NCBI GenBank assembly: GCA_963663385.2
Contig: CAXXXD010000003.1
Span: 192,001-256,000 of the forward strand
Source: Oceanispirochaeta sp.
Lineage (GTDB): Bacteria; Spirochaetota; Spirochaetia; DSM-2461
Length of the DNA: 64,000 bases
Direction of reading: 5' to 3'
Shown here: in pieces, positions 1,308-59,478 of the stretch
Position numbering within the stretch: the stretch's first letter is position 1
How the letters are laid out: the number at the start of each line of letters is the position of its first letter
Program-made: the position numbers and the translations under genes
Notes under the pieces: model-generated
Seen by the model: only the letters and a program-made list of their open reading frames with translations
What the model was told of the DNA's origin: nothing
Database searches by the model: none

Positions 1308-3029
1308 TTATTTGATATAGGCTGCAGCCTGAATTCCGGCAATTCTACCGAAGGTTGTAATATCAGCCATGGCATTTCCACCTAATCTGTTGGCGCCATG
1401 AACGCCGCCGGTAACTTCACCTGCAGCAAAGAGGCCTTTTACCCATTCGCCTGACTCATTGATAACTTTTGTTTCCGTATTAATTTTGAGTCCGCCCATG
1501 GTATGGTGAACGGCAGGTCCGACTTCTACCGCATAGAAGGGCGCCGTCGCCAGTTTCCGGGGCATATCAGGTCTGTTGAAATCAGGATCATTTCCCGCTT
1601 CTACATAAGTATTGTACTGACTTACTGTGGTTTCCAGCGCTGCTCCGTCAAGTTCCATGGCAGCTGCCAGTTCAGTCAGAGAGGCTGCTTCGGTCAGAAG
1701 CCCGGCTTTTGCATAGCTTTCAATAGCCGAGAGTGACTCCCGTACTCCCTGATCAAAAACCAGGAAGGCAGTCTTTCCGGTCTGCTCCAGCTCGGCCGCG
1801 GATACAACATCACGGGTCTGCAGCTCGGATACAAATCTTGCAGCATCCCTGTTTACAAGAATGGCGCCATTTCCGCGAACCGCTTCTGTAATCATCGTGT
1901 TCTTGACAGGCACTACTGTGGGGTGGGTCTGAATCTGTTCAATATCCACCAGCGCAACATTAAAAGGAGCAACCAGGTCAAGGGCGTCACCTGTAGCGCC
2001 GGGATGGTTTGTTGTTCCAAAGCCTTCCAGTTCAGGTTTGAAACGGACAACCTTTTCCTGACTGGCGCCGAATCCTCCGGTTGCCACTATGACAGCTTTT
2101 GCTGTGATATGATAGGTTCCTTCAGCTGTTTCAACATCAACACCATTTACACCGTTCTCATCAGCTGTAATGGCAACAACTTTACTGCCTGTGCGGATGT
2201 CCGCCACTTCTTCGGCCACTTTATCCAGAACACCGGCAACATGAGCGCCAACGCCGGCTCCGCCGGTCGGTCTGTGTGTTCTGTTATTGGATGAGCCTCC
2301 CATTCTTCCCACATCGTTAAGGTCCGCACCGAGAGATACAAGCCAGTTTACAGTCTCGGCCGATTTGGATGCCAGGACCTTTACCAGTTCGGGATCGTTC
2401 AGGTTTTTTCCACCCTTCATGGTATCATTGAAAAACTGTTCAACCGAGTCTTCGATACCCTTGGCTTTCTGCTGAGATGTTTCTGCGGCATTCAGTCCGC
2501 CTGTGGCATAGTTTGTATTACCGCCGACCAGGGGCATTTTTTCCAGCACAATAACTTTAGCGCCCGCATCGGCTGCGGCTTTTGCGGCAGAAAGACCGGC
2601 GCCCCCTGCTCCGATAATGACAACATCTGCCGAATCATCTTCCAGTTTGACTGCTGCTTCAGTTTTTGCTGAAGCGGCGCCGGCTTTTCCTGTGGAAGCC
2701 TTGGCAAGAGCGGCTTGAATGGCGGTAATCATACCGGCTGAGGTTTCGGAAGCGCCGCTGACAGCGTCAATATCACCGCTGTTGGCCTTGATGGCTTTTT
2801 CAATGAGAGTGTTCATGGGTTTGAGGCTGAATTCAGACTCGGGGTTTTCTGTTACCTCAATAGACTGGATGGCCTTTTTATCCACAGTAACGGAAACAAC
2901 GATTGTTCCGCCGTGACCCTGACCTTCTCCCAGGTAGGTTCCGGGAGTGTAAGCATCTTTGGCTCCGCAGCTCATAAAGAGGAGTGCAACCGCAGCCAGC
3001 GCACTCAAAAGGGGAATCATTTTTTTCAT
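1308..3029 (-). CDS. Lipoprotein flavocytochrome-c-family reductase (fumarate reductase-like) with N-terminal FMN-bind domain and no heme motifs
   Basis: Lipobox LFMSC, FMN-bind domain with DAVSGAS, FAD motif GAGGAG, and FccA/FrdA-type catalytic motifs QTHPT, TEAVRGNG, RD, HHTMGG and NRLGGN. Confidence 0.9.
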   Translation of the reverse strand: MKKMIPLLSALAAVALLFMSCGAKDAYTPGTYLGEGQGHGGTIVVSVTVDKKAIQSIEVTENPESEFSLKPMNTLIEKAIKANSGDIDAVSGASETSAGMITAIQAALAKASTGKAGAASAKTEAAVKLEDDSADVVIIGAGGAGLSAAKAAADAGAKVIVLEKMPLVGGNTNYATGGLNAAETSQQKAKGIEDSVEQFFNDTMKGGKNLNDPELVKVLASKSAETVNWLVSLGADLNDVGRMGGSSNNRTHRPTGGAGVGAHVAGVLDKVAEEVADIRTGSKVVAITADENGVNGVDVETAEGTYHITAKAVIVATGGFGASQEKVVRFKPELEGFGTTNHPGATGDALDLVAPFNVALVDIEQIQTHPTVVPVKNTMITEAVRGNGAILVNRDAARFVSELQTRDVVSAAELEQTGKTAFLVFDQGVRESLSAIESYAKAGLLTEAASLTELAAAMELDGAALETTVSQYNTYVEAGNDPDFNRPDMPRKLATAPFYAVEVGPAVHHTMGGLKINTETKVINESGEWVKGLFAAGEVTGGVHGANRLGGNAMADITTFGRIAGIQAAAYIK

Positions 3030-3313
3030 TATAAAAAATCTCCTGCATGTTTTTGATAAAAAAATAGCGATAAAAAAATAACGATTAAAAGTTACAATGT
3101 TAAAGTGAAAACCGCAATGTTTAGAAAGATAATGAGCTTTTAGATCTTATTGGTCGCAAAGGCGGGTGAAATCTCCTATAATATTTAAGAAATATAAGAC
3201 CAAAATAATAGGAAATCTTGATTTATAGAGTTTTAACTGATAAAAGTAGAATCGGTAAATATTGCACGATTTCTGGCTAATTATTTATGCGTTAACATAT
3301 AAAGGACTGGATT

Positions 3314-5332
3314 ATGAGAAAGATAGTTATTTTGGGCGGAGGATACGCAGGTGTCCATGCGGCAAAGCACTTCCATAAAGCTTTTAAAAAGAATCAGGAT
3401 GTGAAGATTACCCTGATTGACAAAAACCATCATCATACTTTGATGACAGAACTGCACGAAGTGGCGGGAGATCGGGTTCCCGATGACAGCGTCCGCATTT
3501 CCTTTGACCGGATTTTTGCCGGGACCACTGTAAATGTCGTACAGGACGAGATTGTAAAACTGGATCCTGAAGCAGGAAAACTCTATTCCGAAACTGCCGA
3601 ATACGGGTATGACTATCTGCTTATGGGAACCGGAGCCGAAACAACCGATTTCGGAATCCCCGGAATTAAAGAGCACTCCCTGCCTCTGTGGAGTTTCAAC
3701 CATGCCATCCACATCCGGGAACATGTGCGGGAGATGTTTTTCAAAGCCGCTCATGAAAAAGATGCGGAAAAACGGAAACAGTATCTGACATTTGTTGTAG
3801 CCGGATCCGGATTCACCGGAGTCGAGATGGTGGGTGAACTGATTGAGAATATCCCTGTTCTTTCTGCTGAGTATAAGGTGGATCCTGCAGAGGTTCAGCT
3901 GATCAATGTTGAGGGACTGGGGAATATTCTGAGTATGATTCCCGAAAAGCCCCGTGCCAAGGCTCAGCGTTATATGGAGAAGAAGGGTGTAAAAATCATG
4001 CTGAATTCTCTCTGTGTAAAAGCGGACGAAGGCTCCCTGACTTTGAAAGACGGTACGGTCATCAAATGCGGTACCCTGATATGGACCTGCGGAATCAAGG
4101 GCGGTTCCTTCGGGGCCTCCACAGGGCTGACTATCGGCCATGTGGACCGTCTGCAGGTTGATAAAACCATGAAGTGTCCCGACTTTGATAATATCTACCT
4201 GGCGGGGGATGCCATCTGGTTTCTGGAGGATGAACGGCCTGTTCCCCAGATTGTGGAAGCGGCAGAACAGACTGCTGCCGTTGCGGCTCACAATATTATC
4301 CGTGAAATAACAGGCAGGGGAGAAGTCAAATCATTTAAATCCAATTTTCACGGTTTTATGGTATCCATCGGCGGGCGTTACGCTGTTTCCTATACAGGCG
4401 GGGTCGCTCTGTCCGGAAAACCAGCTATGGCTCTGAAGCATCTGGTTAATGTTTACTACCTTCAAACCGTAGCGGGCGTAAATGCGTGGTGGAAGTATCT
4501 GGAACATGAAATATTCAATATCAAAAACAAACGTTCCTTTCTGGGCGGTCTGGTTGCCGGAAAGATCAACGGTTTATGGGCCGTCCTTCTGAGACTCTGG
4601 CTTGGCCTTATGTGGGTTATAGAAGGGGTGAACAAAATCGGTGAAGGCTGGTTTAACTTTGATAAGGGTTCCAGCTCCTCCTGGATGTTTTCCCAGGGGG
4701 TCATCCAGGCCGGTCTGCCTGTCGCTGATGCCGGATCAGCAGCATCGGAAGCTGCTGTGGAAACTGTTGCAGAACCTGTGACTGAAGCGGTGAGCGCGGC
4801 AAGCGGTGCGGTAGGTGAGGCTGCCCATGCCGCAGCGGAAACAGCGGCTGATGTCGTCAGCGCCGCTTCGGGAGCGGCTGACGCTGTTGTCGAGACTGTC
4901 GCCCGTACATGGGGACCTGTCTGGGATACTTCTTTAAGCATCCTGTCCTGGGATAATCCTCTGGTAACCTGGTTCCGGCAGACCTTTATGGATGGTATGG
5001 CAGCCTATATACCCTTCCAGTTCTTTCAGGTAATGGTTGTCTCTGTGGAAGTCGCACTTGGTCTTGCACTGATGGGAGGCCTTTTTACATTTCCTGCTGC
5101 GGGCGTTTCCATTATTATGTGTCTGGTCTTTATCCTTTCCGGTCTATTCAGCTGGAGTCAGCTCTGGTTTATCTTTGCGGCTATTGTGATGCTGGGCGGA
5201 GCCGGACGGAATACCGGCCTTGACTACTGGGTCATGCCCTGGCTGAAGAAATGGTGGAATGGGACATCCCTTGCCCATAAGACGTACCTGTATAAGGGTG
5301 AACCGAAAATCCGAAAAAGAAAACAGGGGTAA
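3314..5332 (+). CDS. ndh: Type II NADH dehydrogenase fused to a C-terminal DoxX-like membrane domain (Listeria Ndh2-like)
   Basis: GGGYAG and GSGFTGVE dinucleotide motifs, GD...PQIVEAAEQ, a hydrophobic C-terminal domain (LRLWLGLMW ... GAGRNTGLD) and an Ala-rich insert. Confidence 0.9.
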   Translation: MRKIVILGGGYAGVHAAKHFHKAFKKNQDVKITLIDKNHHHTLMTELHEVAGDRVPDDSVRISFDRIFAGTTVNVVQDEIVKLDPEAGKLYSETAEYGYDYLLMGTGAETTDFGIPGIKEHSLPLWSFNHAIHIREHVREMFFKAAHEKDAEKRKQYLTFVVAGSGFTGVEMVGELIENIPVLSAEYKVDPAEVQLINVEGLGNILSMIPEKPRAKAQRYMEKKGVKIMLNSLCVKADEGSLTLKDGTVIKCGTLIWTCGIKGGSFGASTGLTIGHVDRLQVDKTMKCPDFDNIYLAGDAIWFLEDERPVPQIVEAAEQTAAVAAHNIIREITGRGEVKSFKSNFHGFMVSIGGRYAVSYTGGVALSGKPAMALKHLVNVYYLQTVAGVNAWWKYLEHEIFNIKNKRSFLGGLVAGKINGLWAVLLRLWLGLMWVIEGVNKIGEGWFNFDKGSSSSWMFSQGVIQAGLPVADAGSAASEAAVETVAEPVTEAVSAASGAVGEAAHAAAETAADVVSAASGAADAVVETVARTWGPVWDTSLSILSWDNPLVTWFRQTFMDGMAAYIPFQFFQVMVVSVEVALGLALMGGLFTFPAAGVSIIMCLVFILSGLFSWSQLWFIFAAIVMLGGAGRNTGLDYWVMPWLKKWWNGTSLAHKTYLYKGEPKIRKRKQG

Positions 5333-5335
5333 TCA

Positions 5336-6304
5336 TTGTCCATCCATCCCATCTGGAAGGATTTCCCTTCTCTCCGGACTGATCTTGCAGCTGTATCGGA
5401 TCAGATCAGGAGGGTTGTGGAACAGAGTCCTGAAGCAATTAAGAATGATCTGGCCCGCCTCCTCCTGAGCAAGGGTAAAATGCTGCGTCCCGTTTTTGTC
5501 ATTTTATCTTCGGGCTGGGGAGAGGAACAGAACGAGAATCTTCCTGCTGTAGCTGCTGCTGTTGAACTGCTTCATCTTGCCTCTCTGGTACACGATGATG
5601 TTCTGGATGAGGCTGTTTCCCGCAGGGGGGTCGCCACACTTCATCAGACAATGGGCATTAAAAAGGCGGTCCTTACAGGAGATTATCTTCTGGGGGTCGC
5701 CATGAAGCTGGGGATGAGCGAATTCCGTAAAGAAAACGTTCCTGTCATGATGGAAAGCCTCAATCGTCTTCTGGAAAGTGAGATCGATCAGGATTTTTCC
5801 GGAAAGAGCATGAACATAGACCGTGAATCCTATCTAAAGCGTATTAAAGGAAAAACCGCCGAGCTTTTCGGTCTGGCCTGTATGATCGGGGCAATCGTCA
5901 GCGGATGTGAAGATGTTCTGGTCGAGAACCTTCAGAAACTGGGAATCCTTTTCGGGATGGCCTTTCAGATAGATGACGATATTCTGGACTATACGGGATC
6001 GGAAGGTCTGCTCGGAAAAAATACCGGAAAAGACCTGAAAGAGGGAATCCCGACTCTGCCTTTTATTCTGGCATTGGAAGAGGGGGATAAAAAAGTCCTG
6101 GCCTATACCGGGTCCTCTTTTCGGCGTATCTTCCCGGGATCTCTTCAGAGGTACCTTATCCGCAAGGGGTATGTGGAAAAAGCAGTAGTAATTTCAGACT
6201 CCTATAAAAAGGAAGCGGAGGAGCTTCTGCTCTCCCTGCCGGAATGCGCTTCAAAAGAGATTTTTCTCAGAGTCCTTAAGACGTTTCAGAAGCGGGACTG
6301 CTGA
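5336..6304 (+). CDS. Polyprenyl (heptaprenyl-like) diphosphate synthase catalytic subunit
   Basis: GKMLRP, first DDxxD (HDDVLD...RRG), KTA, and second DDxxD (FQIDDDILD). TTG start. Confidence 0.92.
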   Translation: MSIHPIWKDFPSLRTDLAAVSDQIRRVVEQSPEAIKNDLARLLLSKGKMLRPVFVILSSGWGEEQNENLPAVAAAVELLHLASLVHDDVLDEAVSRRGVATLHQTMGIKKAVLTGDYLLGVAMKLGMSEFRKENVPVMMESLNRLLESEIDQDFSGKSMNIDRESYLKRIKGKTAELFGLACMIGAIVSGCEDVLVENLQKLGILFGMAFQIDDDILDYTGSEGLLGKNTGKDLKEGIPTLPFILALEEGDKKVLAYTGSSFRRIFPGSLQRYLIRKGYVEKAVVISDSYKKEAEELLLSLPECASKEIFLRVLKTFQKRDC

Positions 6305-6333
6305 TTTATATTTATACTTTTCAGATGTTATCA

Positions 6334-6370
6334 GATCCGGCAGCTGTTTCAAAGCATAAGCTGTCGGATC
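6334..6370. terminator. Hairpin between convergent genes (possible bidirectional terminator)
   Basis: 12-bp stem GATCCGGCAGCT/AGCTGTCGGATC. Confidence 0.5.
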
Positions 6371-6420
6371 ATCATGTTCCGGGGACCTGCTGGAGAGAGA
6401 ATCGAACTGCAGCAGATCCT

Positions 6421-7035
6421 CTAGAAAAATCTCTCCAGTAATACCGACCCCCATACCAGTATTTCCAGAGGCAGAATATAGAGAAAGGCCAGAGGATAGG
6501 ATCTGCCGGTATCTGCCTCCGGCAGTTCCGGATCAGAGAGAGCTTCAGGCGGGAATATTTCCATCAGGATCCTGTCCAGACTGCCTATGAAATCCCTGGC
6601 TTTTACATGCTTTCTGCCGTCCAGTATCTCTTCAAAGTAGTAGAACATTCTGCCGAGCAATCCGCCCAGCTTTCCCGGGAATTGCAGGGACGGGGTTACT
6701 GTAAAGAGTGAGAGAAACACCAGTCCCATCAGGGTTATCCCTTTCAGGATCCCCGTTTCCAGTGAACCGTCTGTTATTGTTAAGGGACCTATCTCCCAGA
6801 GGATGCGCCCTGCGGGAGTCAGAAGATGGAAAAAGGTTATGGAGCCGGTCATCATCAGAAAGTAGATGTATCGAATCCTTTTGCCCGCAAGGGTTACCAT
6901 AATAGCAAATACAGCTACAAGAAGCAGTTTTATAATCAGCCAGTCTATAAGAAAGTATCCTGGTATCAGACTCAGTCCTGTCCAGAAACGGGCTTTGGGA
7001 GAAATGATCCGTCCCAGTTTGTCGACTTTTCTCAC
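6421..7035 (-). CDS. EcfT-like (energy-coupling factor T component-like) membrane protein
   Basis: Multi-TM protein with motif GRILWEIGPLTITDGSLETG. The likely GTG start overlaps the upstream stop (GTGA). The ORF-track extension to 7266 overlaps the upstream gene. Confidence 0.6.
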   Translation of the reverse strand: MRKVDKLGRIISPKARFWTGLSLIPGYFLIDWLIIKLLLVAVFAIMVTLAGKRIRYIYFLMMTGSITFFHLLTPAGRILWEIGPLTITDGSLETGILKGITLMGLVFLSLFTVTPSLQFPGKLGGLLGRMFYYFEEILDGRKHVKARDFIGSLDRILMEIFPPEALSDPELPEADTGRSYPLAFLYILPLEILVWGSVLLERFF

Positions 7036-7580
7036 AGGGACTCCCTCATCTGCGCCCACCAGAGGGACTTTTCGGAAAACCGCTGGGCAAACAGACCGAT
7101 AAACAGTCCCGACACGAGTCCGATTCCCAGAAACAGCGGAAGGATACGCCAGGCGGACATCCCGAAGATGAATGTTATGGAGAGTGTTATCTGGGCCATG
7201 TTGCTGACAAGGGCCCCCAGTACGCTTATGCCTATAAAGGAGATATACGGAGTCAGATAATGCCACGCCAGGAACATTATAATCCCGCTTGCTAACGATC
7301 CGCTCAGGGAAAACAGAAAAATATAGGAAGCCATAGTCCCGTTAACCATTCCCTGGCCGAGCACCTTGAGCAGTATCAGCAGAAAATAGGAAGCCATCGG
7401 CAGCACGTGGGGATCCCCCTTTTTACGGGGAAGGAGATCCAGCGCCAGGATAACAGGCAGGTTGGCCAACCCCAGACGCATAAAGGGAATGGGACGGGGA
7501 AAAAGGTACTCCACTGTGGATAGGAAGAGACTGAGGGAACCCAGCATGGCAATACGGTTCAGCTGTTTTTCAGTAAACAT
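7032..7580 (-). CDS. Gx transporter / heptaprenyl diphosphate synthase component I family membrane protein (EetB-like)
   Basis: Signature EYLFPRPIPFMRLGLAN and SVLGALVSNMAQ. AGGAGG RBS lies upstream of ATG 7580 (alternative start 7586). Confidence 0.85.
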   Translation of the reverse strand: MFTEKQLNRIAMLGSLSLFLSTVEYLFPRPIPFMRLGLANLPVILALDLLPRKKGDPHVLPMASYFLLILLKVLGQGMVNGTMASYIFLFSLSGSLASGIIMFLAWHYLTPYISFIGISVLGALVSNMAQITLSITFIFGMSAWRILPLFLGIGLVSGLFIGLFAQRFSEKSLWWAQMRESL

Positions 7581-7935
7581 CGGCATCCACCTCCTGTTTC
7601 TCTCCGCCGTCAATATACAGGAATACCTCATTGGGCAGACAGGCTGCCCACTCCCCCGATTCTGAGATCTGTCCCATGTGGACACAGAGGTTGTCGTCAC
7701 AGTCTGAATGGATAAAGGCTGCCTTTCCTTCGGAAATCTGAATAACCGATTCCCCGACAGGGCCCCGTACATGAATCTCCCTGTCTTCCGAGAGAGGGTA
7801 GAGGGCTACCCCGTCTCTGTCTTCAATGTATAAATAACCGCTGTCGCCGGATCTGTTCCACCCATACCAGGTAAAAACGGAAAAGATCAGAAGCGAAAGT
7901 AGTATAGCGGCAATATCATATCTGCGTATCTTCAT
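7570..7935 (-). CDS. NusG domain II-containing (DUF1312, EetA-like) membrane-anchored protein
   Basis: N-terminal TM followed by SDCDDNLCVHMGQIS...ACLPNEV. Confidence 0.88.
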   Translation of the reverse strand: MKIRRYDIAAILLSLLIFSVFTWYGWNRSGDSGYLYIEDRDGVALYPLSEDREIHVRGPVGESVIQISEGKAAFIHSDCDDNLCVHMGQISESGEWAACLPNEVFLYIDGGEKQEVDADVY

Positions 7936-25135: not shown

Positions 25136-26035
25136 CTAGCGCCAGTTTAAACGGTAGATCGGGATCCTTTCTTTAATCCCCTTTAATTTGGCAGATCCGC
25201 ATAGATCAAATAGTTCTTTCTTCCTGCGGGTTTTCTTCTGGTAATCATCGTAAAAGGTTTTGGATGCAAGGATCCTGTTCTGTTCCCCGATTGCTTTTCT
25301 GACAGATGTAAAAGCTGTCTTTTTCAGCCCTTCGATACGGAAAGTAATATTGATATCTATGCCATGAATATCCTCGGTTGCCGGATCTATAACATAGGTT
25401 CGGCCCTTATGCAGGCCGATGCGGACATTGATGGGAGGATTTTTAGTTTTTTTATTCCTTTTTTCCAGAACCTTCAGGATTTCCATGGCCGTATTGACAG
25501 CCTGTGTCGAACTGGCAAAGGTCGCCAGAAAACCGTCTCCCGTATTTTTATAGAACTGAATACCTGCTCCGTAGAGTATCGGTTTGGTTATATTGCTCAG
25601 ACGCTGTTTTGAATGAAAGGCTATCTGTTCGTCTTTCCGGGCCTGTGTGGTGGAATCGCAGAGATCCAGCACCATAATTGATGATTCGTTTTCCACTTCG
25701 GACAGAGAGATAATCTGAGACTCTCCCGATTGAATCGTTACAACCACCGCCTCTGCCAGCTTGATCTGGACGGGAAGGTGAAACTTCATCTGCCTGCCTT
25801 TCAGGGGATTCCAGCGGTAATCCATATAAACCTCGGTTCCGTTGGAGGATCTTTCATCTTTAATATAGAGGTTGTTGTCCTTTATAATCAGGGAGGCGTG
25901 GGTGTCTGATATATATTTGTTTTGAATGGTAATATCGTGTTCGGAATTTCTTCCCAGAAAAATTCTGTCCTGTTTGAAAGAATAAAACTGACTGGTGTGG
26001 GAGAGTATATCCTTTACTTCGATTCGCAATTCCAT
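25136..26035 (-). CDS. FHA domain + class III adenylate/guanylate cyclase
   Basis: FHA motifs GR..., ISDTHA and SSNGT. Cyclase motifs VLDLCDST, KNTGDGF, RIGLHKG and N..FRIE. Confidence 0.88.
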   Translation of the reverse strand: MELRIEVKDILSHTSQFYSFKQDRIFLGRNSEHDITIQNKYISDTHASLIIKDNNLYIKDERSSNGTEVYMDYRWNPLKGRQMKFHLPVQIKLAEAVVVTIQSGESQIISLSEVENESSIMVLDLCDSTTQARKDEQIAFHSKQRLSNITKPILYGAGIQFYKNTGDGFLATFASSTQAVNTAMEILKVLEKRNKKTKNPPINVRIGLHKGRTYVIDPATEDIHGIDINITFRIEGLKKTAFTSVRKAIGEQNRILASKTFYDDYQKKTRRKKELFDLCGSAKLKGIKERIPIYRLNWR

Positions 26036-27908: not shown

Positions 27909-28250
27909 TCAGCAGGCAACAATTTCCTTAATCATAAATTCCTTTCCGCTGATAATTTCCCACTCCCTGCTGCTGCAGTGGGGGCATACGCTTTTGTTCC
28001 TGATTATATTAAAAACTTTACTGCATCTGCCGCACAGGGCATTGCCCGGGAGTATTTCAATTTCCAGTTTTGTATTTTCCATTGCAGTACCGTCAACCGC
28101 TGCGGGATAGCAGTCCCTGAGGAATTGGGGAATCATGGATGACAGTTCCCCCACCTGCAGGATAATTGTATCCACTTTGGTCAGACCATTCTTCAGGGCA
28201 AAGTCCTCAACGGTTTTAATGATTTCTATTACAACACCTAATTCATGCAA
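27909..28250 (-). CDS. hypA: HypA/HybF nickel metallochaperone
   Basis: N-terminal MHE Ni motif, VGELS, two CxxC (CGRC, CPHC) and SGKEF. TTG start. Confidence 0.93.
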   Translation of the reverse strand: MHELGVVIEIIKTVEDFALKNGLTKVDTIILQVGELSSMIPQFLRDCYPAAVDGTAMENTKLEIEILPGNALCGRCSKVFNIIRNKSVCPHCSSREWEIISGKEFMIKEIVAC

Positions 28251-28275
28251 ATATTCTATCCTCTAATAATATTAA

Positions 28276-28390
28276 TCCCCTTGGTCACAAACTTCGTTTG
28301 TTGCTCAGGTATGCATCCGGCCTCTCCCCCTGGGAGAGGCCTCATTTCCCTAATCAGAATCGAACATTGCTCCTGAGCGAAGTTGAGGGA
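28276..28390. repeat. Nested palindromic REP-like element within the operon
   Basis: Outer arms AACTTCG..GCTCAGG / CCTGAGCGAAGTT enclose the perfect hairpin GGCCTCTCCC-CCT-GGGAGAGGCC. Confidence 0.5.
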
Positions 28391-31087
28391 TTACTCCCCC
28401 GCAAAGGCTTTCTTGAGCTTTCTGATAGGGGTTTTTACCGCTATTTTTGCTTTTCGCTTCAGTATGTGTTTGATGACCTTCGGTTTCATCTCACTGAGAT
28501 CAACACCTTCCGCATCGTATTTCCGTACAAGGGAGATGGCGTCAAACTTACAAACGGTGGTACAGGACCCGCAGCCGATGCAGGCATACTCGTCTACAAC
28601 AGTGGCGCCGCATCCAAGGCATCGTTCCGTTTCTTTTCTGATCTGTTCTTCCGTCAGGATCCCTCTCAAATCGTCAAAGGTTTCGGTTGATTTTCTGTCC
28701 GTGCTGATATTGGCGGCTTTTTCTCTCGGAAGACGATCGTATCCGGCCAGATCCAGGTTTGTCTTGTCCAGAGGTCGGTAATCCCGATTCAGTCGCCCCA
28801 GGGTCAGGCTCTGACCGTTTTGAACATAACGGTGAATGGATATGGCTCCTTCCTTGCCCAGGGCAATGGCATCAATGGCAAACTTCGGCCCTGTCAGGGC
28901 GTCACCGCCGGCAAAGATATCCGGTTCGCCGGTCTGGAATGTCACCGGATCGGCTTTCACGGTCCGGTTGGGGTTGAGCTCAACTTTTGAACTTTCCAGC
29001 AGATTTCCCCAGTCCATCCCCTGTCCGACAGAGAGCAGAACATTGTCCGCTTCGACGATTTTTGTGCTGCTTTCATCATAGCGGGGACTGAATCTCCCGT
29101 CTTCATTAAAAACGGAGAGGCATTTTCTGAATTCGACGCCTGTCACTCTGCCATTTTCCGAAATAATCCGTTTGGGTCCCCAGGAGTTATTGATCGCGAT
29201 CGCTTCCTCTTCGGCCTCTTCAATCTCTTCATCCAGAGCAGGCATTTCTTTTCTGCTTTCAAGGCAGTACATATCCACCTTTTCCGAACCGGTTCGGGCA
29301 GCAGTTCTGGCAACGTCTATAGCGACATTTCCCCCGCCGATAACAACGGTCTTTCCGCTCATCTTATCTGCCCTGCCGAGGTTTACATCCCGGAGAAAAT
29401 CAACTCCGGTTACAACGCCTTCCGCATCTTCGTTTTCAAGACCGAGGCTTCTTCCCGTCTGGGCTCCGATGGCAAGATAGAAGGCTTTATAGTCCTGGCC
29501 CCTCAGTTCGTTCAGGGTAATATCCCTGCCGACTTCAACGCCCGTTTTAAACTCGACACCCATCTCCCGGAGTATCTCGATCTCTGCCCTGATCACATCT
29601 TTTTCCAGTCTGTAAGAGGGGATCCCCAGAGTAAGCATTCCTCCCAGGGCTTCCTGTTTTTCAAATACAGTCACCTTGTACCCGTCAATTGCCAGGTAGA
29701 AGGCGCAGGACAGACCGGCCGGACCGGCCCCTACAATGGCAATCTTTTTGCCGTATTCATGCTTCTGGCGGGGAATGAAGCGGGTTTCGCTGTGAAGGTC
29801 CTTTTCGGCGATAAATTTTTTGATATCATCAATGGCAATGGGATCGTCAATATCCCCTCTGGTACAGGCGGATTCACAGTTCCGGGGGCAGATACGCCCG
29901 CAGACGGCGGGAAAGGGATTCTCTTTCTTGATCAGTTCGAGGGCTTCCGTATATTTGCCCTGGGCTGCCAGTTTGATATAACCCTGAATCCCTATATGCG
30001 CAGGGCATTCCGCCTTGCAGGGACTGGAGCCGGTTTCAACAACAACCTCCCGGTTTGTTCTGTAATCGGTGTTCCACTTCTCTTCTGTCCACTCCGTATC
30101 ACGGGGCGTTTCTTTTCGTTCGGGTAGGGCAACGGGGTTCTTTTCACAGATCTTCTGTCCCAGTTTAAGGGCATTGGTGGGGCAGGTTTCAACACACTCT
30201 CCGCATCCCACACAATTGTCCCTGTTTACCTCAGCCACATAATTGGAGCGGACCATATCGTGGTTGTCCCACATGTTGGCCAGTCTCATATTAAAACAGC
30301 CGCACCCGCAGCAGTTGCAGATAGCATGGGTTTTTCCGGAACCGTCCAGGTTGGGGATGGAGTGCATCAAGCCGTTTGCTTCGGCTCTCTTGATTACTTC
30401 AAAGGCTTCTTCCCGTGTTATTTCCTTACCGCGGCCTGTTTTTATATAATATTCGGCGGCATGACCCAGCTGGATACAGATATCCTCTTTCAGGTGGCCG
30501 CACCCTTCCCCGACCGCTTCCCGGGACGTCCGGCAGGCACAGTCGGAAACGGAAAAAACTGTATTATCATTAAGGTATTTTGACACTTCCTCGTAGGAGG
30601 CATGCCTTGTTTTACCGTCAATGGCTGTTTCTATGGGGATAACGCGCATGGGTCCCATTCCCACCGGGATATTCCCGGCCGCCATAGGTCCTTTCCTCTT
30701 CCCGTATTCATCAAAGAGCTCTCCCAGAATGGGAAGCCGCTCTACCTGTTCCTTATTGTTAACGATCATTTCCATATGACCGGGGACCCATATTTCATTC
30801 CAGTACTTATTAACCCCGTCGATTTCGTTGACAAAGGCCAGACCCACCATAGCCAGCTCCCATAGAAGCTCTTCGGTTTTTTCAGCGGTTTTTCCGCATT
30901 GGGGCGCAATATCCTCTGCGCTCAGGGGTTCCCTCAGTTTCAGACAGAGGGCCACATCTGCCATCTCGTCAGAACAGATCGGTTCCAGAATCCTGTATTC
31001 AGGGTATTCGGGTTTGATCTCCATTCTGCTTCCGCGTTTTGTTCTGCTAATTTTATTTGCCAGATCCAGAAGTTTTTCATTAACCAT
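28391..31087 (-). CDS. Large Fe-S flavoprotein: Cys-rich N-terminal domain + ferredoxin + GltD/NfnB-like NAD(P)-dependent oxidoreductase + C-terminal ferredoxin
   Basis: CACR..CGH..C..CNCCGCGC, CVGCGECVETCP, GltD-type PCKAECPAH/CGRICPRNCESAC, GAGPAG, GGGNVA and C-terminal CIGCGSCTTVC. Alternative start GTG 31117. Confidence 0.9.
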   Translation of the reverse strand: MVNEKLLDLANKISRTKRGSRMEIKPEYPEYRILEPICSDEMADVALCLKLREPLSAEDIAPQCGKTAEKTEELLWELAMVGLAFVNEIDGVNKYWNEIWVPGHMEMIVNNKEQVERLPILGELFDEYGKRKGPMAAGNIPVGMGPMRVIPIETAIDGKTRHASYEEVSKYLNDNTVFSVSDCACRTSREAVGEGCGHLKEDICIQLGHAAEYYIKTGRGKEITREEAFEVIKRAEANGLMHSIPNLDGSGKTHAICNCCGCGCFNMRLANMWDNHDMVRSNYVAEVNRDNCVGCGECVETCPTNALKLGQKICEKNPVALPERKETPRDTEWTEEKWNTDYRTNREVVVETGSSPCKAECPAHIGIQGYIKLAAQGKYTEALELIKKENPFPAVCGRICPRNCESACTRGDIDDPIAIDDIKKFIAEKDLHSETRFIPRQKHEYGKKIAIVGAGPAGLSCAFYLAIDGYKVTVFEKQEALGGMLTLGIPSYRLEKDVIRAEIEILREMGVEFKTGVEVGRDITLNELRGQDYKAFYLAIGAQTGRSLGLENEDAEGVVTGVDFLRDVNLGRADKMSGKTVVIGGGNVAIDVARTAARTGSEKVDMYCLESRKEMPALDEEIEEAEEEAIAINNSWGPKRIISENGRVTGVEFRKCLSVFNEDGRFSPRYDESSTKIVEADNVLLSVGQGMDWGNLLESSKVELNPNRTVKADPVTFQTGEPDIFAGGDALTGPKFAIDAIALGKEGAISIHRYVQNGQSLTLGRLNRDYRPLDKTNLDLAGYDRLPREKAANISTDRKSTETFDDLRGILTEEQIRKETERCLGCGATVVDEYACIGCGSCTTVCKFDAISLVRKYDAEGVDLSEMKPKVIKHILKRKAKIAVKTPIRKLKKAFAGE

Positions 31088-31101
31088 ATAATTTTCCCTT
31101 T

Positions 31102-31776
31102 TTATGCCTTGTTCCACTCTTTTATTTCATGGCGGAGCCAGTCCGCCCAATCGTCAATTCCCTCGCCCGTTTTGGCGGAGATGGGGATGATTGTAATTTC
31201 CGGATTCAGTTTTTTTACATACTCCGTAAGTTTTTCCATATCAAAATCAAAGAAATCCATGGCATCAATTTTATTCACCAGGAGTACATCCACCATTCTG
31301 AACATAACAGGATATTTGAGGGGTTTGTCATGTCCTTCCGGAACACTCAGAATCATGGCGTTCCTTGCGGCTCCCGTATCGAATTCGGCTGTACAGATCA
31401 GGTTGCCGATATTTTCCAGGATCACAAAATCCGTTCCTTCGGTTCCCATGGAAGCCAGACCCTGTCTGGTCATATCCGCATCAAGGTGACACATCCCGCC
31501 CGAGTGGAGTTGAATTACTTTCGTCCCTGTATCTGCCACAGTGTGGGCGTCTACATCCGAATCGATATCGGCCTCCATCACACCTATGCTCATTTCATTC
31601 CCGAGAGCCGCAATGGTTTTTAAAACCGTTGTTGTTTTTCCGGAACCGGGAGAGGACATCAGATTCAGCAGAAATACCTTGTCTTCCTTAAGCTGAGACC
31701 TTAAGGCTTCAGCCTGTCTGTCATTCCCTTCGTAAACACTCTTTTTAATTTCGATAACTTTATATTTTTCATTCAT
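31102..31776 (-). CDS. hypB: HypB nickel-insertion GTPase
   Basis: SSPGSGKTT, GGMCHLDA, ENIGNLIC.AEFDTG, SVPEGHDKPLKYP, NKID and SAK. Confidence 0.95.
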   Translation of the reverse strand: MNEKYKVIEIKKSVYEGNDRQAEALRSQLKEDKVFLLNLMSSPGSGKTTTVLKTIAALGNEMSIGVMEADIDSDVDAHTVADTGTKVIQLHSGGMCHLDADMTRQGLASMGTEGTDFVILENIGNLICTAEFDTGAARNAMILSVPEGHDKPLKYPVMFRMVDVLLVNKIDAMDFFDFDMEKLTEYVKKLNPEITIIPISAKTGEGIDDWADWLRHEIKEWNKA

Positions 31777-31873
31777 TTCTGCATTACCACCTATAACATC
31801 AGGCTTTCAGCCCGTATCTGAACCTTTTTATATCTGTACCGCTGTACAGAGAATAAAAAATCGAACATAATTC

Positions 31874-31890
31874 ACCGAACAATGTTCGGT
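31874..31890. promoter_or_regulatory. Palindromic operator, probably for the divergent TetR regulator
   Basis: Perfect inverted repeat ACCGAACA-A-TGTTCGGT in the hypB/tetR intergenic region. Confidence 0.7.
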
Positions 31891-32036
31891 AATTATAATA
31901 GGCGGCAGCACAGGATTTTGTCAATAAAATTTTATCTATAAAAAAAGATATCCGTATTATGGAAAATCGATCGGTTCTGCAGTATTCTAGAGGCAGAATC
32001 AGTTTCGGGCGGAAGCATATCGAAAGAGGTTATTGT

Positions 32037-32633
32037 GTGGAGAAACTTACCCCCAGACAGCGGCAGGGTATTGAAACCAAGCTCAAAATTACAAAGATAG
32101 CAACAGATCTGTTCAAGAATAAGGGATTCAGCGATGTGACCATCAGGGATATCTGTGAAGAAGCCTCCATCTCTGTCGGGACATTCTACCATCACTTCGT
32201 TTCAAAGGATGAGATTGTCAATACGGCCTATACGCAGATTGATATGCTATGGGACGAACGGATTTCAGATTACCGGAGTAAAAATTCCGAAGAAGATATT
32301 CTGTTCCTTTTTGAGGAGGCGGCAGATCAGGTTGCGGGAATAGGCTGGGAGCTGGCTTCCCAGAGTTATCAGCAGCTTTTATCGGCTAAAAACAAATACA
32401 CATTCAACCCGGAAAGACCCATTTATAAAAAAGTCCGGAAAGCCATTGAATCGGGGATTCAGGAAGGAACCTTTCACGCGGATACGGATGTACTGGATCT
32501 GACGGATACCCTTATCCGCACATCCCGGAGCGCTATCTTTGACTGGTGCCTGAGGGAAGGAGAGCCCGATCTCAGAAGCTGCATGCGCCATGATATCTCC
32601 CTGATATTATCCAATTTCTGTGACTGCCGGTGA
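32037..32633 (+). CDS. TetR/AcrR-family transcriptional regulator
   Basis: HTH ATDLFKNKGFSDVTIRDICEEASISVGTFYHHFVSKDE. Likely GTG start after GAGG. Confidence 0.93.
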   Translation: MEKLTPRQRQGIETKLKITKIATDLFKNKGFSDVTIRDICEEASISVGTFYHHFVSKDEIVNTAYTQIDMLWDERISDYRSKNSEEDILFLFEEAADQVAGIGWELASQSYQQLLSAKNKYTFNPERPIYKKVRKAIESGIQEGTFHADTDVLDLTDTLIRTSRSAIFDWCLREGEPDLRSCMRHDISLILSNFCDCR

Positions 32634-57142: not shown

Positions 57143-57790
57143 CTAGGCGGTGCAAACCTCAAGGGCCCTGTCGGCTGCTGTCGCGGCATCAGGAGTATAA
57201 ATATCGGCTCCAATGGATTCACAGAAAGACTGGGTTACAGGGGCTCCGCCGATCATGATTGTTACTTTATCCCGGATTCCCGCATCCTGTGCTGCCTTAA
57301 CAACGTTTTCCATCTGAGTCATGGTTGTTGTCAGAAGAGCGGATACGGCAATGATGTTGGCATTATGCTCTTTGGCTGTTTCCACATACTTCTCGGGGGA
57401 TACGTCGGTACCCAGGTCGATAACTTCCAGCCCCTTTCCTTCCAGCATGATTTTTACCAGATTTTTACCGATATCGTGGAGGTCTCCTTTAACTGTGCCA
57501 ATTACAGCTGTACCTTTTCCTTCTGTACCCTCTGATTCCAGATGGGGTTTGAGAATCTCCAGACCGGCATTCATGGCACGGGCGGCAATCAGTACTTCCG
57601 GTACAAACACCTGATTGTTCTTGAATTTTTCTCCTACAATACTCATGGCGGCCAGCAGGGCATTGTCCAGTATGTTCTGTGCTTCGGCTCCCTTGTCGGA
57701 TGCGGCATCCACACTGGTTTGACACAGTTCTTTTACATCTGCTGCTTTACCCTTCTGCATCATTTCAGAAATTTTTTCCAGATCTGCCAT
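57143..57790 (-). CDS. Corrinoid (B12-binding) protein of a methyltransferase system (MtaC/MttC-like)
   Basis: Cap domain FVPEVLIAARAM and B12 motif GDLHDIGKNLV...SALLTTT...IGGAP. AAGGAG RBS precedes ATG 57790. Confidence 0.94.
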   Translation of the reverse strand: MADLEKISEMMQKGKAADVKELCQTSVDAASDKGAEAQNILDNALLAAMSIVGEKFKNNQVFVPEVLIAARAMNAGLEILKPHLESEGTEGKGTAVIGTVKGDLHDIGKNLVKIMLEGKGLEVIDLGTDVSPEKYVETAKEHNANIIAVSALLTTTMTQMENVVKAAQDAGIRDKVTIMIGGAPVTQSFCESIGADIYTPDAATAADRALEVCTA

Positions 57791-57880
57791 TTTTGTCTCC
57801 TTAAGTTTAAATCGTAATAGTTGCTGTATTACATTCGACTTAATCCTCGAAGTGCGAAATGCGATCCACCTGACAGTGGG

Positions 57881-58023
57881 GTTCAAGACGAGTATCCTGA
57901 CTTGCAGATCATTCTTGCCTGAGCCTTCCCGATGGTTTAGTATCAGTGGCATTTTCAGGTTTGTCCCTGCTCACAGTGACGGGTTCGTGGAGGAGTTTCA
58001 CCTCGCTTCCTCGCTTGTTGAAC
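57881..58023 (-). ncRNA. Cobalamin riboswitch
   Basis: Minus strand reads AGGAAGCGAGGTGAAACTCCTCCACGAACCCGTCACTGTGA ... GCCACTG ... GGGAAGGC ... AAGTCAGGATAC (B12-box-like), closed by a GTTCAA/TTGAAC stem. Confidence 0.9.
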
Positions 58024-58160
58024 TGATAACAGTATCCCTCTGAAAATACCGGGTCGTATTGGAAAATCTTGTTTTATTATGTAAAAATAAGACCAATTTC
58101 AGGGGGAAAATACTAGTTTTTTTCTCATAAATACAGATTGTAACAGATCAGGCAGGATAA

Positions 58161-59474
58161 TCAGCTATGGATTTCAGAGTTCTCCCGGTCAATCCGGCCC
58201 CTTTTTTCCCTGTATTTTCCAGGGGAAAGTCCGGCAATTTTCTTGAATACCTTTGTAAAATAGCTCTGATCTTCATAACCGACCATACCCGCAATTTCAA
58301 CCAGAGAGAATTTGCTGTTTAACAGGAGGTTTTTGCTTTTCTCAATCCGAACCTGATTCAGGTAGGTATTGAAGTTGCATTTCATCTCCTCTTTAAAAAT
58401 TTTACTGAAGTAAGCGGGACTCAGGTAAACCGATGATGCCACTTCATCCAGAGAGACTTTTTCGGCGAAATTCCTGTTGATATACTGAATGGCCTGGAAG
58501 ATGGCATCCGCGTGTTTGACATCCCTTAAATCAAATACAAGGTCGGCAAAGCGGACAATCACTTTTGCCAGCCAGCCGGCAATCCCCTCGATGGATGTGT
58601 AATAATTAATCTCTTTAAGGTAGTTGAAGTTCATACCGAATATCTGTTCCGCATCGGCTCCGCCTTCAACAGCTGCCCTGGAAAGCAGGACAAGGAGTTC
58701 CAGAACCCGGGCTTTGACAACATCAAAATTCCCGCCGGAGGAGAAGAAAATAACTCCGAGAATTTCGTTCAGGATCCGTCTGGCATTCTGGGAATCACCA
58801 ATCTGAATCAGGTGAAGCAGTTCCCTTTCTTTTTCTACAGGGTACTGGGATATTTCAATCTCCGAATGTTCCATCCGTTTAATGTATTGGATATACTCGG
58901 ATATCTGGGCCTGCTGATCCATGGTATCTTTTTTGGAAACCAGTTCGGAGGTCTGCCCCTCCGTCAGATAGCTGGCGGATATAAGGAGCATTTCGGAGAG
59001 GGCCTTGGCCCTTTCCGTGGTAAGTGTCGGTATTCGGGACAGTTCCCGCCGGAAATCCTCTGAATCCGGCAGATCACGGCCGTATTTCATTCTGAGTTCA
59101 TCAACCAGTTCATCCGGCTCTATTATAAGGGCGGGACCGGCCACCAGGGCTCCGGACATCAGCCCCTCTTCCATCAGGGGCGAAGACCAGTGAAGCAGGG
59201 ATACCGGGCAGAAATACATATAGCTGCCCCCGAATCTTTCGGACTGATACCCGCCGTAAAGGTGTGACTGGCGGCAGTTCAGGCGGGTGCCGGTAATCTC
59301 TACCATACGGCTGCAGACAGGACAGAAGGAGTCAATGACACCCTCTCTGGAAAGGCGGTTTCCCTTGTTATTTATAACAAAACATTCTATCCCTGTTGCC
59401 CGGGTGTAGGTTTCAGCCATCTCTATGGCCTTTTCAAAAAAGGGAGAAATATAATCTCTTGCTTTGTTACTCAT
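58161..59474 (-). CDS. PocR-sensor AraC-family regulator
   Basis: PocR cysteines (FCPVC, NC, YFCPVSL) and a C-terminal HTH (IAGMVGYEDQSYFTKVFKK). Confidence 0.92.
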   Translation of the reverse strand: MSNKARDYISPFFEKAIEMAETYTRATGIECFVINNKGNRLSREGVIDSFCPVCSRMVEITGTRLNCRQSHLYGGYQSERFGGSYMYFCPVSLLHWSSPLMEEGLMSGALVAGPALIIEPDELVDELRMKYGRDLPDSEDFRRELSRIPTLTTERAKALSEMLLISASYLTEGQTSELVSKKDTMDQQAQISEYIQYIKRMEHSEIEISQYPVEKERELLHLIQIGDSQNARRILNEILGVIFFSSGGNFDVVKARVLELLVLLSRAAVEGGADAEQIFGMNFNYLKEINYYTSIEGIAGWLAKVIVRFADLVFDLRDVKHADAIFQAIQYINRNFAEKVSLDEVASSVYLSPAYFSKIFKEEMKCNFNTYLNQVRIEKSKNLLLNSKFSLVEIAGMVGYEDQSYFTKVFKKIAGLSPGKYREKRGRIDRENSEIHS

Positions 59475-59478
59475 TAGT

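Follow-up and report, generated by a model that had tools for sequence, protein, structure and literature searches.

The window analysed here, a stretch of 64,000 nucleotides (nt) of Oceanispirochaeta sp. DNA, contains an apparently TetR-repressed operon in which the genes for the chaperones HypB and HypA enclose a single gene for an Fe-S flavoprotein resembling IsrA, a putative isoprene reductase. We put at roughly 60% the probability that this hypB / isrA-like / hypA operon encodes a "clade 9" Fe-S flavoprotein together with its own private nickel chaperones, and the IsrA family is probably a new kind of nickel enzyme. That the three genes form a real operon and that the enclosed protein belongs to clade 9 is almost certain. 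We observed which genes are present, that their order and the operator are conserved, and that the classical HypA/HypB clients are missing; each metal and substrate step of the mechanism we infer.

The operon lies on the minus strand, with its open reading frames (ORFs) called in the window head to tail in the order hypB, flavoprotein gene, hypA, and with tetR divergent. The first gene, hypB (31102..31776, minus strand, 224 amino acids (aa)), encodes the GTPase nickel chaperone and matches TIGR00073. The second gene, for the IsrA-family flavoprotein (28391..31087, minus strand), codes for 898 aa from the ATG at 31087 or, from the GTG at 31117, for 908 aa. The ATG, 14 nt beyond the hypB stop, is the most likely start, because a public protein collection contains the identical 898-aa sequence and alignments with homologs begin at about residue 8-16; residue numbers given below follow the 908-aa form throughout. 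The last operon gene, hypA (27909..28250, minus strand, 113 aa, TTG start), encodes the nickel metallochaperone and matches PF01155. The regulator gene on the opposite strand (31959..32633, plus strand) has 224 aa as the ORF is read and belongs to the TetR family (PF00440), and its true start possibly lies later, because orthologs align from residue 23-33. A preliminary description, made from the letters of this DNA, had hypB and hypA sandwiching a single gene of about 900 aa, and all four genes were found where it placed them. Five sequencing runs from two studies contain the DNA, and no RNA run is among those listed.

The family includes IsrA, a 901-aa putative isoprene reductase of Acetobacterium wieringae ISORED-2 / strain Y, which is isoprene-induced and has the same architecture (Kronen et al. 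2023, mSystems, PMC10134865). In that paper clade 9 comprises full-length IsrA homologs in Firmicutes, Spirochaetes and other phyla, the A. malicum homologs are placed within it, and Acetobacterium strains whose homologs fall outside the IsrA subclade (A. malicum included) are reported not to reduce isoprene. The same source gives, for a neighbourhood network of 988 homologs, values of 0.73 for HypA, 0.56 for HypB, 0.21 for TetR and 0.4 for DUF5692, and reports the proteins of the isr operon as isoprene-induced in A. wieringae (PMC10134865, sections 8 and 10). It also notes that the IsrA host is without [NiFe] hydrogenase and HypCDEF, and proposes nickel insertion into IsrA by HypA/HypB, possibly at a Cys6 "cluster V" (PMC10134865), which its section 10 likens to the acetyl-CoA synthase (ACS) A-cluster and to double-cubane cluster proteins. 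In a Pelotomaculum enrichment with isoprene, hypA and hypB were up about 373-fold and about 585-fold (preprint 10.64898/2026.02.25.708027). As far as their available text goes, two 2026 Pelotomaculum preprints repeat the nickel idea without biochemistry (10.64898/2026.02.25.708027; 10.64898/2026.02.19.706888). The preliminary description had offered the arrangement as a candidate new one among nickel-dependent enzymes, and here it was anticipated: the family, its HypA/HypB/TetR neighbourhood and the nickel idea already stand in PMC10134865.

The flavoprotein of the window shares with IsrA and clade 9 a length of about 900 aa, an unannotated N-terminal domain (N-domain) of about 270-290 aa with two CxC motifs, and then Fer4, Fer4_20, FAD/NAD(P) and C-terminal Fer4 parts. 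It shares also the adjacent hypA and hypB, the TetR neighbour known from part of the family, and a host without [NiFe] hydrogenase. Over 884 of 898 aa it is 60% identical, with 4 gaps, to the homolog of A. malicum DSM 4132. In contrast to the five-gene isr operon, the present one has three genes, and neither a second HypA nor a stand-alone N-domain ferredoxin was found genome-wide.

Residues 1-290 of the flavoprotein matched no Pfam family. A winged-helix subdomain occupies about residues 12-142 (30692..31084, minus strand, as are all parts that follow) according to the AlphaFold2 (AF2) model and VIA-align. It is followed by a Cys9/His-rich alpha/beta subdomain at residues 150-295 (30233..30670), the candidate location of a special metallocluster and of a nickel site, with C193, C195, C206, H208, C214, H219, H252, H264, C267, C269, C270, C272 and C274. 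The first ferredoxin-type [4Fe-4S] motif spans residues 296-335 (30113..30232; C302, C305, C308, C312, C324; PF00037 at residues 296-318). Next come Fer4_20 at residues 364-442, with two [4Fe-4S] clusters of the GltD/NfnB/DPD type (29792..30028; PF14691, E 2.1e-23), and the FAD/NAD(P)H-binding module Pyr_redox_2 at residues 458-752 (28862..29746; PF07992, E 2.4e-30). A C-terminal ferredoxin-type motif at residues 840-871 (28505..28600; Fer4_21 and Fer4_7 matches), with C833, C836, C846, C849, C852 and C856, closes the protein. Apart from the Cys-rich subdomain, 17 more cysteines fit four ordinary [4Fe-4S] clusters. The Cys/His motifs claimed earlier for the N-domain (CACR, CGH and CNCCGCGC) are all present, and Pfam matched the ferredoxin motifs and GltD/NfnB-like FAD/NAD(P)H module of the preliminary description as Fer4, Fer4_20, Pyr_redox_2 and Fer4.

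Is this protein simply one of the known GltD-like enzymes? The C-terminal 540 residues match NfnB, GltD and dihydropyrimidine dehydrogenase (DPD) type chains (5jca_L at 1.8e-70, 4ylf_B at 5.3e-69), and the nearest solved chains for the Fer4_20 region are 9bov_A, 8oh5_C, 9n5u_A and 5jca_L. Residues of about 360-770 align to this module (5jca_L, 4ylf_B, 6s6s_G, 1gt8_A; 9bov_A, 8oh5_C, 9n5u_A) at E 1e-53 to 1e-107, with the two [4Fe-4S], FAD and NAD(P)H sites in common. However, none of the NfnB/GltD/DPD chains listed has an N-terminal winged-helix plus Cys9/His domain, and the protein stays under all named NCBIfam equivalog cut-offs: PRK12771 came closest (480.7 against 516), followed by gltA (290 against 472) and GOGAT_sm_gam (234 against 448). 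Judged by its sequence, the flavoprotein module is homologous to the NfnB/GltD small subunits, yet the protein is not one of those enzymes.

HypA and HypB deliver Ni2+ to [NiFe]-hydrogenases and, in Helicobacter, to urease. The HypB of the window scores 236.9 bits on the TIGR00073 equivalog (cut-off 121.2), belongs to the CobW/HypB/UreG GTPase superfamily (PF02492) and is without the N-terminal metal-binding extension. Its P-loop G44-x-G46-K47-T48, C96-H97 and C128 are invariant across 77 cassette HypBs. HypA matches PF01155 at E 4.5e-31 (107.6 bits, cut-off 28.9), begins with MHE and has two CxxC pairs; M1-H2-E3 and C73, C76, C89 and C92 are invariant among 27 cassette HypAs, and all 71 full-length cassette HypAs have 112-115 aa and start with (M)HE. 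The M-H-E, Zn-cysteine and CH...C motifs are named as the nickel and zinc sites of HypA/HypB, M-H-E being the Ni-binding element, in section 9 of PMC10134865. Both proteins are thus like the HypA and HypB of [NiFe]-hydrogenase and Helicobacter urease maturation in having the HypA M-H-E N-terminus with Zn(Cys)4 and the HypB P-loop GTPase with a CH...C metal site. They differ from those systems in their genome, which has no hydrogenase large subunit, HypC, HypD or urease, and in that the cassette HypAs form a group of their own.

How strictly do the chaperone genes accompany the flavoprotein gene? We collected 80 loci by an N-domain search of species-representative genomes (Spirochaetota, many Bacillota, Bacteroidales, Ferrimonas and Mycoplasmatota) and searched their ORFs with profiles of the window proteins. 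In 69 of the 80 loci the flavoprotein gene has hypB immediately upstream and hypA immediately downstream, all three on one strand, and the intergenic gaps of the cassette are mostly a few bases. In one locus both chaperone genes are downstream; in six the flavoprotein gene runs off the contig and hypA could not be judged. Among loci with a complete flavoprotein gene the sandwich is found in 69 of 74.

The spread of the cassette is patchy. Of 10 other genomes of the genus, 6 have an N-domain match, as do 13 of the 40 relatives sampled. Within the genus the N-domain identity is 54-76%, and the Clostridium and Ferrimonas homologs reach 74-76%. One relative's genome (G059) has three N-domain matches, and another (G008) has two cassettes. 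This pattern suggests several subtypes and horizontal transfer.

In the genome of the window organism (5.3 Mb, 4 contigs, 98% complete) HypA, HypB and the N-domain each occur just once. This genome gave no matches to the [NiFe] large subunit (PF00374), HypC (PF01455) or HypD (PF01924), HypE and HypF being outside the search, and none to urease alpha (PF00449). The 64-kb window has no further nickel-related gene. Carbon monoxide dehydrogenase (CODH) was rejected as a client: the sole Prismane gene is that of hydroxylamine reductase/Hcp, at 862.8 bits against 30.6 for CO_DH_cata. In the locus C2:1102610-1107226 this hcp gene adjoins an IS110-family transposase gene. The earlier claim that the window has no hydrogenase, urease, CODH, hypC or hypD gene can accordingly be extended to the whole genome.

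We then asked about the classical clients in the hosts of the other cassettes, taking 50 of the 80 locus genomes. The [NiFe] large subunit was over the cut-off in 9 of 50 (10 of 50 at E <= 0.001), HypC was found in 9 of 50, and urease alpha was over the cut-off in 3 of 50 (6 of 50 at E <= 0.001). None of the three was over the cut-off in 37 of 50 hosts, and no match at E <= 0.001 was found in 33. The preliminary description had proposed looking at whether the three-gene synteny persists in genomes lacking hydrogenase and urease; with the sandwich kept and most hosts without hydrogenase, HypC or urease over the cut-off, the outcome favours dedication.

Genomes that do have hydrogenase-type genes are informative in another way. 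Of 12 HypA loci fetched, 9 adjoin an IsrA-like gene and are 52-58% identical to the window HypA, whereas the other 3 (from two genomes) adjoin hydrogenase-type genes and are only 33-36% identical to it. Two of these three hydrogenase-side HypA loci have a HypB of their own, at 35-37% identity, and in 6 of 10 genomes with hydrogenase-type genes a further HypA is encoded no more than a few kb from these. The difference between 52-58% and 33-36% indicates that the cassette HypAB are a separate lineage travelling with the flavoprotein. Dedication of HypA and HypB to the enclosed flavoprotein is therefore well supported by gene order and sequence. Of the earlier claim that these chaperones are dedicated to metallating the Cys-rich domain, the dedication to the flavoprotein stands, by synteny, by client absence and by the second, divergent HypA beside hydrogenases; the entry of nickel, and its site in that domain, would be further, predicted steps.

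The control region offers comparative evidence of its own. The TetR protein matches the PF00440 helix-turn-helix (TetR_N) at E 6e-14. Between tetR and hypB lies a candidate TetR operator of 17 bp (31874..31890), a perfect 8-1-8 palindrome ACCGAACA-A-TGTTCGGT. By consensus scan a promoter-like site for the hypB operon was seen at 31895..31924 on the minus strand (TTGACA, 18 nt, TATTAT; 11/12), and the palindrome begins 5 nt downstream of it. The same scan gave a promoter-like site for tetR at 31871..31899 on the plus strand (TTCACC, 17 nt, TATAAT; 10/12) that overlaps the palindrome; for both sites a promoter function is predicted. The palindrome is the one such site in 5.3 Mb of genome, even with 2 mismatches allowed.

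For the operator comparison we used 11 IsrA-like loci from 40 relatives' genomes, with 1.5-kb flanks. Three of them (L097, L098, L099) have a divergent TetR ortholog by hypB, 42-44% identical. A 15-nt operator core recurs unchanged in L097 and L099 and with 1 mismatch in L098; it stands each time in the tetR-hypB spacer directly after the -10 box. In the four-way spacer alignment the -35-like and -10-like blocks are conserved and the rest of the spacer has diverged. This is good comparative evidence for the predicted role of the palindrome as TetR operator. The perfect operator that the preliminary description had assigned to the divergent TetR has thus held up, as a predicted site which is genome-unique and kept in three relatives. 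The nearest solved full-length match of this TetR is KstR2 (4w97_A, E 8.3e-10), a regulator that senses a CoA thioester; by analogy this likeness gives a weak lead to the inducer.

The N-domain is the part of the protein to which the nickel proposal turns. Its AF2 model (residues 1-340, pLDDT 83.2) has a winged helix at about residues 12-142 and then the alpha/beta Cys-rich subdomain, which reached pLDDT 81.6 when folded alone. The winged-helix part aligned to ArsR/MarR-type proteins at a modest VIA-align Z of 6-7, and fold searches with the whole N-domain gave only winged-helix regulators. For the Cys-rich subdomain there was no convincing PDB relative (best VIA Z 4.1, from weak GNAT/CheC-like alpha/beta matches; best Foldseek E 0.41). 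Against PDB sequences the N-domain profile matched through its ferredoxin part alone, and residues 130-290 in the ESM Atlas returned fragments of the same family and ferredoxin clusters, nothing else. ACS, CODH, Hcp, HdrB and double-cubane proteins were absent from the fold and profile match lists of the Cys-rich subdomain, an absence that does not exclude kinship. As modelled, the Cys-rich subdomain is without a solved structural relative, which is new in the present analysis. A complex prediction of residues 1-340 with HypA scored 0.00 in both runs, a non-answer that speaks neither for nor against binding.

Cys-Gly-Cys is part of the nickel site of ACS. The flavoprotein resembles the ACS A-cluster and double-cubane proteins in its Cys-dense site with such a stretch (C270-G271-C272) and in the implied delivery of nickel; it differs from them in that no fold or sequence similarity was detected and in that CGC is common also in HypAB-free homologs.

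The N-domain is widespread, with 1707 clusters (50% identity) matching at E <= 0.001. A homolog search found 3259 proteins, the best 120 of them at 71-93% identity and from several phyla. The domain is either fused, as here, or forms with two ferredoxin motifs a stand-alone protein of about 350-430 aa; section 10 of PMC10134865 describes a stand-alone ferredoxin that is unlinked to HypAB. One 882-883-aa variant, with an N-domain 40% identical, is very abundant in public data: its 90%-identity cluster has 1353 members, one of which occurs on 255 contigs.

Which residues distinguish the cassette-linked proteins from the rest of the superfamily? We compared residue conservation in 80 cassette-linked proteins and in 50 distant, mostly stand-alone N-domain homologs. 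The two CxC motifs (C193-A-C195 and C267-N-C269), together with C206, C214, C270, C272 and C274, are conserved at a level of at least 0.99 in the 80 loci. H208, H219 and H264 are likewise invariant (at least 0.99) in the 80 cassette-linked proteins, and in the distant set these three are found in 44%, 4% and 4%. The cysteines may thus be an Fe-S scaffold common to the whole superfamily, and the need for HypAB may be specific to the fused clade, perhaps involving the three histidines.

How might such a system work? HypB, as a GTPase, very likely loads HypA, and HypA would serve the flavoprotein and no other client. The metal delivered is probably nickel. There is somewhat under an even chance that nickel settles at or beside the Cys9/His site of the N-terminal subdomain and forms the catalytic centre there. 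Electrons would pass from NAD(P)H to FAD; the Fer4_20 pair of [4Fe-4S] clusters and the ferredoxin-type clusters would then relay them to the centre in the N-domain, and from there they would reach the substrate, a path suggested by the domain order and by the published IsrA model. What we say of the substrate is doubtful: it could be a small, probably hydrophobic, unsaturated molecule that would also relieve TetR repression at the palindrome over the promoter, and it need not be isoprene.

Only tentatively, and at rather less than even odds, may the nickel proposal be carried further, to a new class of nickel enzyme. Its Ni-Fe-S centre would sit on a fold without a solved relative, built from the Cys9 scaffold and the clade-only H208, H219 and H264, and would need only HypA and HypB, not HypCDEF, for its maturation. 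Such an enzyme would use NAD(P)H to hydrogenate a chemically inert bond of a widespread metabolite other than isoprene, for example an unactivated C=C in a lipid or acyl-CoA-type molecule to which the KstR2-like TetR would respond. That the metabolite would be a widespread one follows, under this proposal, from the 71-93% identity of the N-domain in its best 120 matches from several phyla.

Several observations weigh against private nickel chaperones for a nickel flavoprotein. The nine cysteines are kept also in the distant set, at 0.70-1.00 (C270 at 0.82, C272 at 0.70), and HypA or HypB was near stand-alone N-domain genes in none of four relatives' loci (flanks of 2-7 kb). Because the cysteines persist in HypAB-free homologs, the Cys site alone could be an ordinary or unusual Fe-S site and not a nickel site. 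The window HypA scores 77.7 bits on the TIGR00100 equivalog, under the cut-off of 88.1. Among the 80 loci two have hypA only, without hypB, and two have neither chaperone despite full flanks. The host census covers 50 of the 80 locus genomes, and many of the 50 are metagenome-assembled, with completeness not given. The window genome has other nickel enzymes, with 4 Lar_N (LarA-type) matches. IsrA itself (VUZ27132.1) was likened to our protein by description, the alignment being to the A. malicum homolog. A 26-residue insert (IsrA 756-782) is described as unique to IsrA and its Pelotomaculum relatives in section 8 of PMC10134865; the flavoprotein, with only 4 gaps against the insert-less A. malicum homolog, probably lacks it. 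Finally, the literature searched gave no metal analysis or enzyme assay of any IsrA-family member, and for this reason the nickel content of the flavoprotein is something that we infer. In that literature the family is without biochemical work, in agreement with the earlier remark that no characterised enzyme has such an arrangement.

These points bear on three other explanations. It is unlikely, though the least so of the three, that HypA and HypB deliver another metal (zinc, iron or cobalt) or help to build an unusual Fe-S cluster, the flavoprotein being a nickel-free Fe-S/FAD enzyme. The CobW/HypB/UreG GTPase superfamily, to which HypB belongs by PF02492, includes zinc and cobalt chaperones, the nine cysteines shared with HypAB-free homologs could simply bind Fe-S clusters, and HypA falls short of its equivalog cut-off; yet HypB is far over the HypB equivalog cut-off with its C96-H97...C128 invariant, and HypA keeps the invariant M-H-E, the Ni-binding element cited above from PMC10134865, section 9. 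More improbable still is that the flavoprotein is a plain Nfn/GltD-like NAD(P)H:ferredoxin oxidoreductase or a bifurcating module, with an N-domain that is a regulatory or docking winged helix plus Fe-S extension and has no small-molecule substrate of its own. The matches of the C-terminal 540 residues and the winged helix at residues 12-142 would suit it, and bifurcation is raised as a possibility in section 10 of PMC10134865. However, the named NCBIfam equivalogs are missed widely, as with gltA, the N-domain is the most conserved part of the flavoprotein (in the best 120 matches, from several phyla), and dedicated nickel chaperones and TetR control would be left unexplained.

Very improbable is the explanation that HypA and HypB are general nickel handlers for another client, a LarA-type or unrecognised nickel protein, and share the operon by chance. 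The genome does have the 4 LarA-type matches and a CbiM nickel/cobalt uptake component; the Lar-system loci are at C4:435350-454321, C2:1838460, C3:506204 and C3:923255, and one LarC, the nickel insertase of the Lar system, adjoins one CbiM transporter component (C4:450-454 kb). But the presence of LarC beside CbiM gives that system its own insertase, and from the LarA-type genes, LarC and CbiM it follows that nickel is imported and that the nickel-pincer enzymes of this organism do not depend on HypAB. The sandwich, preserved with only a few bases between its genes in 69 of 80 loci and in several phyla, and the second, divergent HypA kept by hydrogenase genomes also argue against shared residence by chance and for private chaperones of the flavoprotein.

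Some neighbours of the cassette in other genomes deserve description. DUF5692, a polytopic membrane protein of about 310 aa without a PDB relative by sequence, is encoded right next to the cassette and in the same direction in 50 of 80 loci (e.g. L007:3777-5003); conceivably it transports nickel or the substrate. In the window organism there are two copies (C2:623447-624382 and C3:786471-787472), both away from the operon, and one of them has as neighbours a GntR/FCD regulator and a protein of 1531 aa that contains a PPDK_N domain. In 16 of 80 loci a GntR/FCD regulator is found upstream of the cassette, and in 3 of 80 PEP-utilising enzymes are found downstream. In 6 of 80 loci hypA is followed, after a median of 127 nt and on its own strand, by an arylamine N-acetyltransferase gene (PF00797, E 1e-64; e.g. 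L058:9091-9951), and this neighbour may be a hint at the chemistry of some family members.

Elsewhere in the window, at positions 57143-61320 (minus strand), the gene of a corrinoid protein with B12-binding domains is grouped with those of a PocR/AraC regulator and of a RACo-type reductive activator of corrinoid enzymes, probably as part of a corrinoid methyltransferase system. Another group, at 1308-7772, has genes for a 573-aa flavoprotein with FMN_bind and FAD_binding_2, a Pyr_redox_2 protein of 672 aa, a polyprenyl synthetase and component I of a heptaprenyl diphosphate synthase. A 299-aa protein encoded at 25136-26035 (minus strand) has an N-terminal FHA domain and a weak C-terminal adenylate/guanylate cyclase-like match (E 1.3e-3).

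The nickel-enzyme idea was published in 2023 and is not new here. New are the genome-wide search of 50 hosts for the classical clients, the recognition of a HypA lineage of its own and of a conserved operator, the finding that the Cys-rich subdomain has no solved relative, and the three clade-specific histidines as candidate ligands. The Oceanispirochaeta genome is a clean test bed, with a single cassette copy and no hydrogenase, urease or CODH to confuse nickel accounting. The clade-specific histidines are concrete targets for mutagenesis, and TetR with its defined, conserved candidate operator could be used to fish for the inducer and hence for the substrate. If the family contains nickel, the short list of nickel enzymes would gain a new enzyme class. 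In that case HypA/HypB would also have in this family their first client other than hydrogenase and urease, and the family would represent a biological route to the hydrogenation of unactivated double bonds.

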